The position numbers and the translations under genes were made by a program. From Nitrospirales bacterium (GTDB lineage Bacteria; Nitrospirota; Nitrospiria; Nitrospirales; UBA8639): a stretch of 64,000 nucleotides of DNA. A model generated the notes under the pieces. The model was not told the origin of the DNA. It ran no database searches and saw nothing but the letters and a program-made list of their open reading frames with translations. The stretch's first letter is position 1. Every line of letters begins with the position of its first letter. This document shows, one piece after another, positions 30,927-38,219 of the stretch. The stretch covers positions 3,968,001 to 4,032,000 of the forward strand of contig OY820905.2 of NCBI GenBank assembly GCA_963555755.3. Reading direction: 5' to 3'.

Positions 30927-31190
30927 TGCGGGGTGTCGTCCCCGCGCGACGAGCCCCTTTTGTTTCGGCAAAAGTGTACAAAACCATGTTCACTTGTGTG
31001 CGGCCCTTCGGGTGTCTCTGCCTCCGCCCCGAATCTTTCGACTCCGCTCATGACAGGTCAGATGGCCGCGCAACTCGCGGAGTCTATCCTGAGCCCTTCG
31101 ACAAGCTCAGGCCAGGCCTTGTCGAAGGGCTCAAACAGTGCTCGCCAAAGAAGCCGATTCGGGGCTGCGGCTCCGCCGCACTCAACGCGG
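30927..31190 (+). repeat. Repeat family B copy carrying REP-like inserts
   Basis: cttttgtttcggcaaaag hairpin; cctgagcccttcgacaagctcagg..gtcgaagggctc insert. Confidence 0.78.
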
Positions 31191-31210: not shown

Positions 31211-33114
31211 CAGGGCTATTTCATATTAAAGTGTAACTTTATAGATAATAAGGAATAATCGATTTAGGCTGGCTTTTTCTTTTCGTTTACGGCATACTCT
31301 TTTGCATGCCAGACGAATCGCCAAGCGGACAGCCGGACATTGATCTGAGGCAAGTCGTGGTTCGCCCAATTGTCCGAGACGAAAAGGACGCCTTCAAGAC
31401 CCTTCTCGACAGACACCACTACCTCGGTCATGCCCCGCTGATTGGCCAATCGATACAATATCTCGCCTGTGTGCAGGATCGCTGGCTGGCCTTGCTGGTG
31501 TTTGCGGCGGCGGCCCTCAAATCGAGACCGCGAGACCACTGGATCGGCTGGCCCCCCTGTTTTCAATGGCAACGACTCCATTTACTGGCCAACAACACCC
31601 GGTTTCTCATGCTGCCGGGCTGTTCGCAAAAGAACCTCGCCTCGAAAGTCCTGTCGCTCTGCGCGAAACGGATCTCGGCCGATTGGCAACTGTACCACGG
31701 CTACCCCTTGCTCCTCTTAGAGACCTTCGTCGATCCTGCCCGCTTCACCGGGACCTGCTATCGGGCCGCCGGGTGGCACGAGCTCGGTCTGACACGAGGG
31801 TTTCGCAAGTCGAACACGTGTTATGTTCAGCATGAGAGACCGAAGCGCATCCTAGTCGTGCGGCTGCATCCCCAAGCCCGAGAGATCCTTGCACGCCCGA
31901 TGCTTGATCAGCCCTATCAGAAAGGAGAAGCGCCTCAGATGAGATTGAATACAAAACAGACGGACTCCCTCTTTACGTATGTGGTGCAGCTGACCGATCC
32001 CCGCCATTTGCAAGGGCAACGGCACACCCGACGCGCCCTCACGGCGATCATGTTCTGTGCCACCTTGTGCGGCGCGCGCGGCTATGAAGCGATCTCGGAC
32101 TGGGCCCAGCAGTTATCGCAGCCGATGCGCAAGCGGCTAGGCTGTACTCAGCGAGGGGGGCGCTACCTCGTCCCGAGCCGCAGCACTCTTTACCGCTTTA
32201 TCACGGCCGTCGACCCCTGTGAAGTCGATACCCTGCTCGGCCGGTGGCTGGACACCTTCGGCGGGGAGGATCAGGGCATTGCCATTGATGGGAAGACCAT
32301 GCGGGGGACGTCGAAGGTCCCAAGCGAACAGACCCACGTCCTCAGCGCCGTCACCCATCAAGCCGGGCGCCACCTCACCCAAAAAAAGTTCACTCCAAGA
32401 CCAATGAGATCCCCTGCGTGCGGCCCCTGTTAGATGCGCTCGAGATCGCAGGGAAGGTGATCACGGCGGATGCGCTCCTCACCCAGAAAGAGATTGCCGA
32501 GTACCTGGTGCACGAACGCGGCGCCGACTTCGTCTTCACCGTCAAGGGAAACCAGCCCACCTTGAAGCACGACATTGAGGCCTTAGCGTTGCGAGCACGC
32601 CGGTGCGATTATGCCACCACCGAGAAAGGCCATGGGCAGATCACGACCCGCAGGATCTGGTGCGATGACTCCCTGAATGCCTATGTCAACTTTCCTCATG
32701 TCCAGCAAGTCTTCTGCATTGAGAGGGAAGTGACGCATCTCAAGCAGGGCCTCACGACCGTCGAAGCGGTCTGCGGTGTCACGAGTCAGTCCAAAGACAA
32801 GGCGGGGTCGAAGACCATCCTCTCGCAAAACCGAAAGCATTGGAGTGTGGAGAATAAGCAGCATTATGTGTTGGACGTCACCTTTGATGAAGACAGGAGT
32901 CAGATACGAAGTCTCAATGGCCCAATGGTCATGACCTGTCTGAGACGCTATGCCATCAGTCTCTTACGCCTGAAAGGCTACACCAATATCGCGCAGGCGT
33001 GTAGACTGCTCTGGGGCAAGCCCCATTTAGCCATCCGCATGGCCCTGCCCTGAAAAAGAGGGCACAAAAAACCTCATGGAATCCCTTGCTTATAAAAAGA
33101 ATGAAATGGCCCTG
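31211..33114 (+). mobile_element. ISAs1-family IS
   Basis: TIR cagggctatttcat / atgaaatggccctg, 9-bp TSD GGACGGGAC. Confidence 0.9.
31306..33053 (+). CDS. DUF4338/DruA-like domain fused to ISAs1 transposase, with a -1 frameshift at AAAAAAAG (32381-32388)
   Basis: HHYLG, NNTRFL and ETFVD..GTCYRAAGW motifs; IDGKTMRG; -1 frame gives KTNEIP, TADALLTQ and HWSVEN. Confidence 0.85.
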
Positions 33115-33168
33115 GGACGGGACAACTACTCATTGACCAAAAAGAATGGCCCCAGTAAACTAGGAAGC

Positions 33169-33396
33169 ATGTTGTACCGCGGACGCATCACGATGGAGCC
33201 AGGCAAACGAGGGGGGAAGCCCTGCGTTCGAGGACTTCGGATTACGGTATATGACGTCCTCGAATATCTCGCTGGAGGCATGACCGAGCAACAAATTCTC
33301 TCGGACTTTCCTGATCTGGAACCTGAAGATATCAAGGCCTGCTTGGCCTTCGCCGCCGATCGGGAGCGGAAATTCGTGTCGGTGCCTCCGGGGTGA
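33169..33396 (+). CDS. DUF433 antitoxin
   Basis: GKRGGKPCVRGLRITVYDVL..DFPDL motif. Confidence 0.88.
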   Translation: MLYRGRITMEPGKRGGKPCVRGLRITVYDVLEYLAGGMTEQQILSDFPDLEPEDIKACLAFAADRERKFVSVPPG

Positions 33397-33725
33397 AACT
33401 GCTCTTTGACGAAAACCTCTCTCCCCGCCTAGTCGATCTCCTTTTAACCTTGTTTCCTGAATCCAGCCATGTACGCAATGTTGGTCTAGCCAATGCTGAC
33501 GACGATAGGGTCTGGGCCTATGCTCAAGAAAATGGCTTTGTTATCGTGTCAAAGGATTCAGACTTTCATCAGCGAAGTTTTGTATTGGGTGCTCCGCCCA
33601 AGGTCGTTTGGATTCGACGGGGAAATTGTACTACTGAAGAAATGGCCAACCTTCTCACTCAACATCGGACAGACCTCGAAACTTTTCAGGACAATCCAGA
33701 CGGAGCCTTTCTTGAATTAGGCTAA
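33393..33725 (+). CDS. DUF5615 PIN-like toxin
   Basis: MKLLFDENLSP, D..VW.YA and VSKDSDF motifs. Confidence 0.88.
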   Translation: MKLLFDENLSPRLVDLLLTLFPESSHVRNVGLANADDDRVWAYAQENGFVIVSKDSDFHQRSFVLGAPPKVVWIRRGNCTTEEMANLLTQHRTDLETFQDNPDGAFLELG

Positions 33726-33834
33726 ATCGACTATCCTGGGACAAGTCTTACATGTCCCTTGCGTAGGGTTACGATATCAGCTACTTGGAAAACCAACCTT
33801 CGCGTATCTCACAGGGGACCGCGCCAAAACTTTA

Positions 33835-33975
33835 GGGCACCTCTAAAAACCGTCCTTTTCCGTGATGGCGGCGTCAGCCGCGTGCTCACATCCTCATGTA
33901 TTCGCCCATACACTCCGGTTTTCCGCGCGCGGCTTCCTTGCCCTCACAAAAAATGCCTGGTTTTTAGAGGTGCCC
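33835..33975. repeat. MITE (141 bp)
   Basis: TIR gggcacctctaaaaacc / ggtttttagaggtgccc, TTTA on both flanks. Confidence 0.85.
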
Positions 33976-34069
33976 TTTAGTCAAACATTGTATCCTTATA
34001 CCTATTCATAGTGTGGTGTAGTCTCCGCGCGACGCGACACTTTTGTTTCGGCAAAAGTGCCCAAAACCA

Positions 34070-34729
34070 GTGTGCCGAGCATGTTCAACAGCTTGAGGGT
34101 GCAAGTCCCTTTGACAACCTGATGGAGGTGAAGTCATCGCGAAGCGCAAGGGCGTCGTCGTGAGGCGGGGTCTGAAGGAAGCGTAGAGCAACGGCGCGGG
34201 CCGATGAACAAGAACCAGATACGAGGCAGTCAGTGTCGGACGAGTGAGCTGGTTTTCACGAAGTTCATATCCATCAAGGGCATTGGGTGTACATCTGGCG
34301 GTCGTGCGCTGAAGGCGGTTGAGCGTACCTCGGGAGACCTCTCGTCTGTCTTGGTAGCAAGACTGAGAACTGAGTGATCAGTTCAGACCGGGCGGGAGGA
34401 GTCAGCAGAGGGCATAGTAGTCCCGCTAGGGATGAAAGCCTGAACGGTGCGGAGTGGTAAGTAGGCAGCGGAACTCATGAGCGACAAGCGGCTGAATGAC
34501 CAGTTAACCCTGGCCTTCCCGACAGAGGATATGGGTGAAGCCCTAAGGACTGACGAGGAAGTGTCGAATCGCTTGCGGCGAACCGCCCAGTCGAACGCCC
34601 GGCGAGGGGTGACCAGTTGAGAGTAGTTTCTCCTGGTGGCCAATCGCTTAACCCACCGAACCGCCGTATACGGACCCGTACGTACGGTGGTGTGACAGGG
34701 AAAGCGGGTGACCGCCTACCTATGTCGAT
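34070..34729 (+). ncRNA. ORF-less group II intron, IIC-like (660 nt)
   Basis: 5' GTGTG, gagtcagcagagggcatagtag D2/D3 junction, D5 accgccgtatacggacccgtacgtacggtggt with CGC triad, 3' cgAT; no RT ORF. Confidence 0.9.
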
Positions 34730-34802
34730 TTTTTGCCCGTGCGCGTCCCCTCCGATCCTGCTCAGAGCAGGTTCTCCGGGGTCCCTCCGCCTCCGCCCTG
34801 AT

Positions 34803-34933
34803 TCAGGGCGGAGGCGGAGGGACCCCCTTGGGGCCGTAAACAGGCAGAAATGGTTTTGGGTCCTTTTGCCGAAACAAAAGAGCCTGTCCCGAGTCCGTCG
34901 AGGGGACCTCGTCTGCAGGGGCGAAACCCTGCA
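34803..34933 (-). repeat. Inverted repeat family B fragment
   Basis: Reverse complement of the B consensus; joins the + copy in a 24-bp-arm palindrome. Confidence 0.78.
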
Positions 34934-35052
34934 TCTAAATAATTCCCCAAGAGACCCATCCCTAAAACCTACCTTATTGTAACCTAGAAATAGCATTTGG
35001 ATCACAACAGTTCGCGCAAGCTCCTGGCGCACCTGGCATAATAAAGAAATAT

Positions 35053-36064
35053 TATGCCTTCCCATTTGACTAAGGTTAGTCCCTAGACTAGTCTGCTGGA
35101 CTATGGACACAGGGTATGCTGCTGATATCTTGGATTTTTCTGTTAGGTTCCACACCGAAGAAGCGTGCTTCGAGTACTTGCGGGCGATTCGGTGGCCAGA
35201 CGGGTTTATGTGTCCAGCTTGCGGTCATCGCGGTGGTTGGTGGCTCAAAAAATATTTCCGGTTTGAGTGTTCGTCGTGTCATAGACAGACATCACCGCTA
35301 AGCGGCACAGTGATGCATAGATCGCACTTGCCGCTACGGCTTTGGTTTTGGGCTGCCTATTTCGTCTCCACGCACACACCTGGCATCAGTGCTGTGCAAT
35401 TGCAGCGTCAACTCAGTATCAAGAAGGTGGATAGCGCCTGGTATTTGCTCCACAGATTGCGACGAGGAATGATACGACAGAACCGTGAACGGCTCGCAGG
35501 AACAGTTGAAGCCGATGAAACCCATATCGGTGGACCGGTAAAAGGCAAAACGGGCCGTGGCGTCGCGAAAGCGAAAACCAAGACGTTAATAGCCGGAGCC
35601 GTAGAAATTGTCACGTACACACAAGGGGATCACTTTCGAGAGAAAGCAGGGCGTTTACGATTAGCGATTCTTCAAGACGCTGGAGAGAACGAGATCAAAG
35701 CATTCCTCAATAGCCATGTCGCTGAGGGCAGTAAGATCAAGTCCGATGGTTGGAAGGGATACTCGGCAAAAGCCTTGGCAGGATACGAACACCTGAGACG
35801 GACCCAGGGTGACCCAGCAAGTGCTGGGAAGCACGCTCCACACATCCATAGAGCGTTCGGCAATCTGCAGACCTGGCTGAACGGGATTCACCATGGAGTG
35901 GATTCAAAATACCTGCAACACTATCTTGATGAGTTTGTCTTTCGCTATAACCGCCGTGAGACTCCAATGAGTACCTTCCAGAGTTTGTTGAAAATCCTGA
36001 CCAGCAGCTCAAAACCCTTGGGATTCAATAAACTGAAGCAACCTTAGTTAAATGGGAAGGCATA
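35053..36064 (+). mobile_element. IS1595-family IS, copy 1 (transposase 35103-36047)
   Basis: TIR tatgccttcccatttgactaagg, 8-bp TSD AGAAATAT, CPxC..CxxC zinc ribbon, VEADET and YLDEFVFRYNRR motifs. Confidence 0.93.
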
Positions 36065-36130
36065 AGAAATATTTTATCACCACCAGGGATTACTTCCCCT
36101 CCTTGTGGGCCTGTTGAATATTTCATTCCA

Positions 36131-37141
36131 TATGCCTTCCCATTTGACTAAGGTTAGTCCCTAGACTAGTCTGCTGGACTATGGACACAGGGTATGCTGC
36201 TGATATCTTGGATTTTTCTGTTAGGTTCCACACCGAAGAAGCGTGCTTCGAGTACTTGCGGGCGATTCGGTGGCCAGACGGGTTTATGTGTCCAGCTTGC
36301 GGTCATCGCGGTGGTTGGTGGCTCAAAAAATATTTCCGGTTTGAGTGTTCGTCGTGTCATAGACAGACATCACCGCTAAGCGGCACAGTGATGCATAGAT
36401 CGCACTTGCCGCTACGGCTTTGGTTTTGGGCTGCCTATTTCGTCTCCACGCACACACCTGGCATCAGTGCTGTGCAATTGCAGCGTCAACTCAGTATCAA
36501 GAAGGTGGATAGCGCCTGGTATTTGCTCCACAGATTGCGACGAGGAATGGTACGACAGAACCGTGAACGGCTCGCAGGAACAGTTGAAGCCGATGAAACC
36601 CATATCGGTGGACCGGTAAAAGGCAAAACGGGCCGTGGCGTCGCGAAAGCGAAAACCAAGACGTTAATAGCCGGAGCCGTAGAAATTGTCACGTACACAC
36701 AAGGGGATCACTTTCGAGAGAAAGCAGGGCGTTTACGATTAGCGATTCTTCAAGACGCTGGAGAGAACGAGATCAAAGCATTCCTCAATAGCCATGTCGC
36801 TGAGGGCAGTAAGATCAAGTCCGATGGTTGGAAGGGATACTCGGCAAAAGCCTTGGCAGGATACGAACACCTGAGACGGACCCAGGGTGACCCAGCAAGT
36901 GCTGGGAAGCACGCTCCACACATCCATAGAGCGTTCGGCAATCTGCAGACCTGGCTGAACGGGATTCACCATGGAGTGGATTCAAAATACCTGCAACACT
37001 ATCTTGATGAGTTTGTCTTTCGCTATAACCGCCGTGAGATCCAATGAGTACCTTCCAGAGTTTGTTGAAAATCCTGACCAGCAGCTCAAAACCCTTGGGA
37101 TTCAATAAACTGAAGCAACCTTAGTTAAATGGGAAGGCATA
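36131..37141 (+). mobile_element. IS1595 copy 2 (transposase 36181-37047, 1-bp deletion near the 3' end)
   Basis: Near-identical to copy 1; gagatcca in place of gagactcca. Confidence 0.9.
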
Positions 37142-37207
37142 AGAAATATTTTATCACCACCAGGGATTACTTCCCCTCCTTGTGGGCCTGTTGAATATTT
37201 CATTCCA

Positions 37208-38219
37208 TATGCCTTCCCATTTGACTAAGGTTAGTCCCTAGACTAGTCTGCTGGACTATGGACACAGGGTATGCTGCTGATATCTTGGATTTTTCTGTTA
37301 GGTTCCACACCGAAGAAGCGTGCTTCGAGTACTTGCGGGCGATTCGGTGGCCAGACGGGTTTATGTGTCCAGCTTGCGGTCATCGCGGTGGTTGGTGGCT
37401 CAAAAAATATTTCCGGTTTGAGTGTTCGTCGTGTCATAGACAGACATCACCGCTAAGCGGCACAGTGATGCATAGATCGCACTTGCCGCTACGGCTTTGG
37501 TTTTGGGCTGCCTATTTCGTCTCCACGCACACACCTGGCATCAGTGCTGTGCAATTGCAGCGTCAACTCAGTATCAAGAAGGTGGATAGCGCCTGGTATT
37601 TGCTCCACAGATTGCGACGAGGAATGGTACGACAGAACCGTGAACGGCTCGCAGGAACAGTTGAAGCCGATGAAACCCATATCGGTGGACCGGTAAAAGG
37701 CAAAACGGGCCGTGGCGTCGCGAAAGCGAAAACCAAGACGTTAATAGCCGGAGCCGTAGAAATTGTCACGTACACACAAGGGGATCACTTTCGAGAGAAA
37801 GCAGGGCGTTTACGATTAGCGATTCTTCAAGACGCTGGAGAGAACGAGATCAAAGCATTCCTCAATAGCCATGTCGCTGAGGGCAGTAAGATCAAGTCCG
37901 ATGGTTGGAAGGGATACTCGGCAAAAGCCTTGGCAGGATACGAACACCTGAGACGGACCCAGGGTGACCCAGCAAGTGCTGGGAAGCACGCTCCACACAT
38001 CCATAGAGCGTTCGGCAATCTGCAGACCTGGCTGAACGGGATTCACCATGGAGTGGATTCAAAATACCTGCAACACTATCTTGATGAGTTTGTCTTTCGC
38101 TATAACCGCCGTGAGACTCCAATGAGTACCTTCCAGAGTTTGTTGAAAATCCTGACCAGCAGCTCAAAACCCTTGGGATTCAATAAACTGAAGCAACCTT
38201 AGTTAAATGGGAAGGCATA
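37208..38219 (+). mobile_element. IS1595 copy 3 (transposase 37258-38202)
   Basis: Same TIRs, 8-bp TSD TCATTCCA. Confidence 0.93.

Follow-up and report, generated by a model that had tools for sequence, protein, structure and literature searches.

Intron and target site

The DNA analyzed here is a 64,000-nt stretch of the genome of a Nitrospirales bacterium (GCA_963555755.3, contig OY820905.2), which is referred to as the window as a whole and whose numbering is used for all positions unless a contig or locus is named. It carries a group IIC intron that lacks the open reading frame (ORF) of a reverse transcriptase (RT) and that interrupts one arm of a dispersed palindromic repeat, directly behind a hairpin of the latter (Table 1). 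The intron ends, read from the sequence, are 5' GTGTG at 34070 and 3' GTCGAT at 34729; they satisfy the group II end rule (5' GUGYG / 3' AY), and the junction is backed by empty copies of the repeat that read AAAACCA/TTT. Only ccc and the heptamer AAAACCA (34063-34069) lie between hairpin and intron, which starts 10 nt past the stem-loop. Rfam models, proposed as a check in a preliminary description of this DNA that had been made from the sequence alone, matched the + strand in three places above their gathering scores, i.e., RF02001 (34154-34324, 123.4 bits, E 7e-25), RF01998 (34364-34440, 51.2 bits), and RF00029 for domains 5 and 6 (34659-34729, 42.4 bits versus a gathering score of 40, full model length).

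Outside domain 4 the ribozyme comprises about 426 nt, and its domain 5 has 32 nt; a compact ribozyme with a short domain 5 is a trait of group IIC. The longest + strand ORF located entirely within the intron encodes 57 aa (34204-34377), and a second frame of 47 aa corresponds to an RT leader. That the RT gene has been lost rests on an ORF deletion common to the ORF-less copies (see below). The preliminary description of a 660-nt intron with intact ends, domains 5 and 6, and no RT gene behind a hairpin is thus borne out by the sequence, the Rfam matches, and the common deletion. The 47-aa frame was considered as a meaningful peptide and rejected, its ATG being ACG in three of the five copies of this genome and its frame being shifted relative to the parent.

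The exon-binding site 1 (EBS1) that had been predicted, TGGTTTT, pairs over all seven positions with the exon end AAAACCA, the intron-binding site 1 (IBS1), and is placed in its loop by the structure line of RF02001, in which the hairpin reads GUGA-GCUGGUUU-UCAC. Splicing is predicted to join AAAACCA to TTTTTGCC. Two empty target sites announced at about 30986 and 34850 were also recovered, with AAAACCA ending at 30986 (+ strand) and 34851 (- strand), respectively.

Table 1. Coordinates of the intron, its parts, and the surrounding repeat arms in the window
Feature	Position	Strand	Basis or remarks
ORF-less group IIC intron	34070..34729	+	660 nt; RF02001, RF01998, RF00029, and six-domain consensus fold
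Target hairpin	34038..34059	+	8-bp stem CACTTTTG/CAAAAGTG, loop TTTCGG; sequence
IBS1 AAAACCA, last 7 nt of 5' exon	34063..34069	+	Pairs 7/7 with EBS1 loop; kept in 76/78 regex sites
EBS1 TGGTTTT, loop of domain 1 hairpin	34250..34256	+	Rfam structure line; loop co-changes with exon end in relatives
Domain 1	34075..34333	+	Consensus fold columns 6-270; RF02001 covers 34154-34324
Domains 2 and 3	34334..34441	+	Consensus fold columns 271-378; RF01998 covers 34364-34440
Domain 4	34445..34658	+	5' arm and RT leader/start region retained, short cap in place of ORF; comparison with RT-bearing copies
Domain 5, 32 nt	34660..34691	+	RF00029 and consensus fold
Domain 6 and 3' end (..CCTAT GTC GAT)	34693..34729	+	RF00029; three compensatory pairs among copies in upper domain 6 stem
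47-aa open frame, frameshifted remnant of RT N-terminal leader	34477..34620	+	ORF list; matches first ~30-48 aa of 467-aa L091 RT
Outer part of left repeat arm, degenerate first hairpin module (consensus GCGGGGTTTCGTCCCCGCGCGACGAGG)	34010..34037	+	Profile of 74 empty sites
3' exon, right-hand part of left repeat arm, starts TTTTTGCCCGTGCGCG, nested small hairpin	34730..34800	+	Matches empty-site downstream consensus TTTTCGCCCGTGCGCGGCCC
Second repeat arm, inverted, site empty (TGGTTTT 34851-34857, hairpin 34861-34882)	34801..34945	-	Regex match at genome 4002851
Further empty target copy, hairpin and AAAACCA ending at 30986	30955..31010	+	Regex match at genome 3998986; exact-pattern search

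Copies in the genome

Five full ORF-less copies, with 91 to 100% identity to that of the window, are present in the genome (4.62 Mb, two contigs, 99.4% complete), together with two fragments, one of 97 nt (3' end) and one of 45 nt (5' end). The hairpin and (A)AAACCA precede each full copy as well as the 5' fragment, some of the stems varying by compensatory changes, and behind the 3' fragment the right-hand part of the repeat continues, so that 7/7 insertions of this genome lie in the repeat. Further copies and their flanks, which had been suggested as a check, hence all point to the same repeat, and the proposed specialization of the intron on one multicopy repeat is upheld by these seven insertions together with 20 of 22 flanks examined in a second genome (G148, see below). 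The five filled repeats differ from one another in the stem of the first hairpin, the spacer, and the right-hand part. The introns themselves differ mutually by 3 to 9%, without any near-identical pair. The cores of copies A and B look intact, and copy D, although inserted at the usual position, has the second EBS1 variant, that of G198 (see below), with a weaker pairing (run of 3).

In front of the 3' fragment stand the last 29 codons of the cognate RT, and the fragment borders on an element that encodes an IS256-family transposase. It is what remains of an RT-bearing copy lost from this genome, and the only such trace there. No RT-bearing copy was detected here by sensitive blastn, nor by tblastn with the 47-aa leader. 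Since the 3' stub is the only trace of the RT and the copies differ by 3 to 9%, the five copies are most likely old and stranded; with no cognate RT in this genome, the window copy is probably stranded now. Of the 35 RVT_1 matches, all but the best one are at most 36% identical to the cognate RT over comparable lengths. The best one (C1:3614484-3616169) is 42 to 43% identical and class C-like (334 bits versus the GsI-IIC RT).

The latter RT belongs to a second class C intron (L051:735-2698; G000:C1:3614243-3616206; RT 42% identical to the cognate one, 334 bits versus the GsI-IIC RT), which is located behind a hairpin of its own and whose 3' exon passes after 5 nt into a copy of the above repeat in inverted orientation (aagaa TGGTTTTGG...). 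RTs of this second family in G148 (45 to 46%) likewise adjoin inverted repeat copies, and the family may represent another lineage, one that uses the opposite repeat strand. Group II introns in general are very abundant in this genome, with 35 RVT_1 and 35 RF00029 matches from several families, one of which has about 14 near-identical copies.

Two further observations concern copy E and its surroundings. The domain 4 of this copy contains an 18-nt insert (L005:1887-1904; alignment columns 386-403) that forms a small hairpin, CCTGC-GCAA-GCAGG, and many copies of the repeat also have comparable small hairpins nested in them. About 530 nt from copy E, an empty site (L005:2690-2735; G000:C1:3780398-3780440) reads AAAACCA, ATGTCGA, and ATGTTCGCCC; the extra bases correspond to the last 7 to 8 nt of the intron and may be the footprint of a deleted copy.

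The target repeat

A regular expression for the hairpin followed by AA[AC]ACCA matched 78 sites in this genome, 74 of which are empty. The exact pattern TTTCGGNAAAAGN5AAAACCA was followed by A, C, or T, i.e., empty, at 76 sites and by GTG, i.e., filled, at three. Read backwards as a control, the same pattern had no site in this genome, and the 79 exact-pattern sites can therefore not be attributed to chance. The consensus of the empty sites extends ungapped from about 60 nt upstream, where the first hairpin (GCGGGG-TTTCG-CCCCGC) is located, to at least 26 nt downstream, and beyond it the right-hand part is variable, spanning about 150 nt and containing nested insertions. In G182, a genome of the same genus, there are 50 empty exact-pattern sites and no introns, and the short, non-coding, many-copy repeat therefore exists independently of the intron.

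Neighboring sites are arranged as 14 convergent pairs versus one divergent pair in this genome, with a spacing of 122 nt to several kilobases. After removal of the intron in silico, the two arms of the window, folded as single-stranded DNA, give one long hairpin of -97.6 kcal/mol, compared with -44.5 +/- 3.9 kcal/mol for 100 shuffled sequences (z = -13.5). The predicted fold makes the local element a palindromic repeat resembling a miniature inverted-repeat transposable element (MITE) or a REPIN, the latter being a doublet of repetitive extragenic palindromic (REP) sequences. Of the label MITE in the preliminary description, the multicopy, non-coding nature and the two inverted arms folding together stand, but neither a target-site duplication nor a transposase was established. 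An orthologous empty locus was sought in four genomes of the same genus with window positions 31300 to 36100, which retrieved repeat matches and one partial gene match only.

With respect to a possible mover of the repeat, the genome contains 17 Y1_Tnp matches. One of them, which is degenerate, adjoins a repeat arm, whereas the other 16 have no such hairpin within 1.5 kb. At this locus (G000:C1:2377800-2378480), about 190 bp separate the arm from a downstream, frameshifted Y1/HUH gene, which has the motif YCLMTNHVHLV and resembles those of REP-associated tyrosine transposases (RAYTs) or IS200; this neighbor is a hint at a REP/REPIN-like repeat. As the driver of the repeat, a RAYT/IS200-type transposase was not sustained, given a single degenerate match beside an arm among 17. 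The target hairpin was also considered as a transcription terminator, which was rejected, since a simple terminator scan called none there.

Class assignment and RT-bearing relatives

Relatives were sought in 201 genomes of the same order, and matches were found in 21. Locus L091 of genome G180 contains the same intron with about 1.25 kb of additional sequence in domain 4, encoding a protein of 467 aa. Compared with solved structures, this protein matches the GsI-IIC RT (PDB 6ar1) with 445 bits (E 2e-132) and the group II intron RT 7uim with 306 bits, while LtrA and the T.el RT reach 122 and 105 bits, respectively. Pfam found RVT_1 and GIIM only, and no endonuclease domain, in this RT and in a copy from G148. 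The family is assigned to class C because the best match of the L091 RT is the GsI-IIC RT, far above LtrA and the T.el RT. The earlier assignment to group IIC is thereby confirmed, both by the RT of the full-length relative and by the location of relatives behind hairpins. Distant relatives with 72 to 81% identity in domains 1 to 3 are found directly behind terminator-like hairpins (L074, L097, and L085), and others behind hairpins of another kind (L076, L077, L092, and L093).

The alignment with the GsI-IIC RT begins at residue 48 of the 467-aa protein, and the ORF of the RT-bearing copies in G148 has 415 aa and starts with MGAQLMEAV. On these two grounds, the 47-aa frame of the window intron represents a frameshifted N-terminal leader outside the RT core. 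The ORF deletion begins just after the MGDQL codons and stops about 35 nt short of the domain 4 closing helix, and a short cap hairpin is present instead. Its breakpoints are identical in this genome and in G148, and 20 aligned ORF-less copies are colinear; judged from this comparison, the ORF-less intron is a deletion derivative of a class C intron that carried an RT. An RT-encoding parent, which had been suggested as something to look for, is missing from this genome but was found in related ones (L091 of G180 and seven copies in G148).

Guide pairing, fold, and retrohoming

The seven base pairs between EBS1 and IBS1 exceed what is found in relatives outside the family (runs of 3 to 6 bp from the junction); a short EBS1 and no EBS2 are typical of group IIC. 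Across ten pairs of intron and site, uninterrupted pairing counted from the junction averaged 4.9 for cognate versus 2.88 for non-cognate combinations. EBS1 and the exon end change together, i.e., TGGAG occurs with CTTCA or CTCCA and TAGAG with CTTTA or TCTA, and in G198 the loop ATGG is combined with CCAT, the intron being located one base further along.

An alignment of 20 ORF-less copies (five from this genome, 13 of the 32 from G148, and one each from G198 and G180) has a mean column identity of 92%. Its consensus fold (RNAalifold) comprises 205 pairs, few of which are broken and 16 of which, in domains 1, 2, 3, 4, and 6, are changed on both sides. Diversity amounts to 0.048 in domain 1, 0.117 in domain 2, 0.089 in domain 3, 0.036 in domain 5, and 0.089 in domain 6. 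The 5' arm of domain 4 is conserved as well (0.044) and may be a candidate for the part that binds the RT. The window copy carries seven private substitutions relative to this alignment.

G148, which belongs to another genus of the same family, contains 32 full ORF-less copies and seven RT-bearing copies, whose RTs are 82 to 83% identical to that of L091 and at least one of which has an intact 415-aa ORF (RVT_1 and GIIM). Here 32/71 exact-pattern sites are followed by GTG, 29 of these being 5' ends of this intron family, and the filled proportion of exact sites is about 41 to 45%. The flanks of 22 G148 copies were examined. In 20 of them the intron follows the hairpin and AAAACCA (AAAGCCA in one case); among these, the stem occurs in several compensatory forms and the right-hand module in at least three. 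One copy is located directly behind another intron copy in tandem, and one (L111) is off target, with an unrelated hairpin and CCA in front of it. Several loci contain head-to-tail arrays without a spacer, and across four genomes the intron has entered repeats of differing subtype at the same point.

Independent retrohoming is suggested by this combination of common breakpoints, 16 compensatory pairs, differing repeat subtypes, tandem arrays, and an off-target insertion. As to related introns at unrelated sites, which the preliminary description had named as a counter-indication, only the distant relatives and the one off-target copy were found, all of them behind hairpins, and insertion behind hairpins is the normal behavior of group IIC introns. 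Its proposal of a mobilization in trans is favored by comparison, i.e., by the coexistence of 32 ORF-less and seven RT-bearing copies with the same breakpoints in G148.

Strand choice

According to cumulative GC skew, this chromosome has its origin at about 2.70 Mb and its terminus at about 0.55 Mb. In G148, the skew at 20 sampled points is positive below 1.70 Mb, negative between 1.92 and 4.10 Mb, and positive again above 4.32 Mb. On this basis, 25 of the 34 filled sites of G148 are in leading-strand sequence, four in lagging-strand sequence, and five ambiguous, versus 11 leading, 25 lagging, and three ambiguous among 39 empty sites; the difference in leading orientation (25/29 filled versus 11/36 empty) has a Fisher p of 1.2e-5. 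The window offers the same picture on a small scale, as the arm in leading orientation is filled and the mirror-image lagging arm 122 nt away is empty. Independently of the introns, the repeat is orientation-biased in this genome, with the top strand on leading-strand sequence at 28/77 C1 sites.

The bias would be explained by insertion into the lagging-strand template, a reading that draws on the known behavior of endonuclease-less introns as outlined in PMC4424553. A lagging-strand bias has been described for class C (PMC8919778).

Neighborhood in the window

The intron sits in a patch of mobile elements. A separate element of 157 bp (33826-33982) has perfect-looking terminal inverted repeats, aaaactttagggcacctctaaaaacc and ggtttttagaggtgccctttagtc, and many copies with 85 to 97% identity in genomes of the same genus. 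It is preceded by an overlapping DUF433 / DUF5615 (PIN-like) pair with a toxin-antitoxin-like look (33076-33725), a short way upstream of the repeats, and by an ORF matching DruA-like and DDE_Tnp_1_assoc, behind which lies a fragment of a DDE_Tnp_1 transposase (31306-33053). On the other side, three tandem IS1595-family transposase genes (Zn_ribbon_IS1595 and DDE_Tnp_IS1595) are spaced by about 1.08 kb (35103-38202).

Origin of the window copy

Overall, we estimate a probability of roughly four in five that the window intron is an ORF-less IIC derivative that reached the repeat hairpin by EBS1-guided reverse splicing with an RT supplied in trans. The intron would have reverse spliced into single-stranded DNA just behind the hairpin, the site being chosen by the 7-base pairing of EBS1 and IBS1. 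The RT of full-length copies would splice and mobilize the short copies in trans, and insertion would occur at replication forks, on the lagging-strand template. Tandem arrays would originate from the re-invasion of an occupied site, which can be invaded again because recognition rests almost wholly on the 5' exon.

Several observations weigh against this reading. The 99.4% complete genome contains no cognate RT, its best RT match being 42% identical. Copies D and E each have one broken pair in domain 5, and the window copy has an A-to-C exchange in the GUAAAU motif, which none of the other 19 copies alters and which is also a conserved part of RF02001. Given the relatedness of the 20 aligned copies, their compensatory changes amount to few independent events. 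The direction of replication in G148 was derived from GC skew at 20 points only, and in this genome the orientation bias is not significant (5/7 filled versus 26/74 empty, p = 0.10).

As an alternative, the copies of this genome might still be mobile, being spliced and moved across family borders by the other class C RT (C1:3614484-3616169). This enzyme is class C-like (334 bits versus the GsI-IIC RT) and also has the N-terminal leader motif QLN.AF...G.A; driver RTs with relaxed specificity have been described for introns of T. elongatus (PMC2882425), and copies A and B have intact-looking cores. We nevertheless regard continued mobility as unlikely, since the RT is only 42 to 43% identical to the cognate one, the five copies are 3 to 9% apart without a near-identical pair, and 76 perfect sites are still empty.

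Passive hitch-hiking is less probable still. A single entry of the intron into the repeat, followed by multiplication of the composite by the mover of the repeat, would fit an intron that is always within the same repeat and a repeat that is itself multicopy and here forms a long palindromic, mobile-looking element. It is at odds with filled copies of different subtypes, which vary in first-hairpin stems, spacers, and right-hand modules, with head-to-tail arrays without spacing, with the location of L111 behind an unrelated hairpin and of another copy shifted by one base together with a matching EBS1, and with the different replication orientation of filled and empty sites. The view of a decayed relic that has been inactive since the loss of its ORF and owes its copy number to segmental duplication can draw on the lack of an RT in this genome and on private mutations in copies A, D, and E, but it is disfavored at the family level and hardly tenable in view of 32 G148 copies with one common deletion, compensatory changes in domains 1, 2, 3, and 6 that arose within the ORF-less lineage, and the existence of two EBS1 variants.

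Comparison with known systems

The terminator-inserting group IIC introns, such as B.h.I1, O.i.I1, and GsI-IIC, represent one point of reference. Relatives of the window intron, close as well as distant, likewise occur behind terminator-like hairpins. Terminator IIC introns share with the present family the compact ribozyme, an RT without endonuclease domain, and an EBS1-IBS1-guided insertion a few bases past a stem-loop; in contrast, the window copy combines the hairpin of a dispersed repeat with a 7-bp guide and the lack of an RT. Insertion after intrinsic terminators has been reported for group IIC introns (PMC4424553). IIC-attC introns, which are specialized on the attC stem-loops of integrons, are a comparable case of a IIC sublineage that adopted one recurrent structured DNA motif (PMC3001079; PMC4424553). 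Here, however, the motif and the host elements are different and the ORF-less form predominates, a distinction that refers to the published descriptions rather than to sequences.

Among the descriptions compared, the closest single-deletion ORF-less lineage that outnumbers its RT-bearing partners is TeI3 of Thermosynechococcus elongatus with the RTs of TeI4 (PMC2882425). In both cases a single ancestral deletion removed the ORF at identical breakpoints, the remnant contains a change that disrupts its frame, short copies are in excess of RT-bearing ones, and EBS/IBS pairing at the insertion sites is good. An RT-bearing relative in the same genome, as in the TeI3 system, is absent here and present in G148 (seven copies). 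The Thermosynechococcus introns, as characterized in that paper, are of the IIB type, with long EBS/IBS and diverse sites, whereas the present family is IIC, hairpin-dependent, and essentially restricted to a single target motif; mobilization in trans was established there by experiment and is deduced here from sequence.

C.te.I1 of Clostridium tetani resembles the situation in the window, as an ORF-less intron in a genome without a cognate RT gene (PMC4424553). According to the same account it lies in a gene and self-splices, whereas here five copies are intergenic and the stub of an RT-bearing copy is still visible. A mobile element in short palindromic extragenic repeats has been reported for a group II intron of Pseudomonas putida KT2440, 2/9 copies of which are listed as REP-associated (PMC1525189). 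This association is weak (22%) and comes without a stated mechanism, compared with 7/7 insertions here and 20/22 in G148 with a base-pairing guide. Our literature search, which was not exhaustive, yielded no description of IIC introns settled in repeat hairpins; Simon 2008 and Mohr 2018 may bear on the question of newness.

Implications

The enzyme-less form is the successful one in this family, as exemplified by 32 ORF-less versus seven RT-bearing copies in G148, and its landing site is the hairpin of another repeated element. We lean slightly towards the broader view of two stacked parasites of single-stranded DNA, according to which a IIC lineage with a 7-base guide for the arm of a REPIN-like repeat would have shed its RT gene, colonized almost exclusively arms on the lagging-strand template, and filled nearly half of the sites in one genome. 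Dozens of equivalent filled and empty sites in both orientations constitute a natural experiment, which is relevant to the strand choice of a hairpin-reading retroelement at the replication fork, to the reach of an RT acting in trans, and to the fate of an intron family after the loss of its last autonomous copy, as in this genome. If the view of stacked parasites is true, the repeat hairpins would represent a third natural target class of IIC introns beside terminators and attC and would provide a site-by-site natural read-out of strand choice and mobilization in trans.

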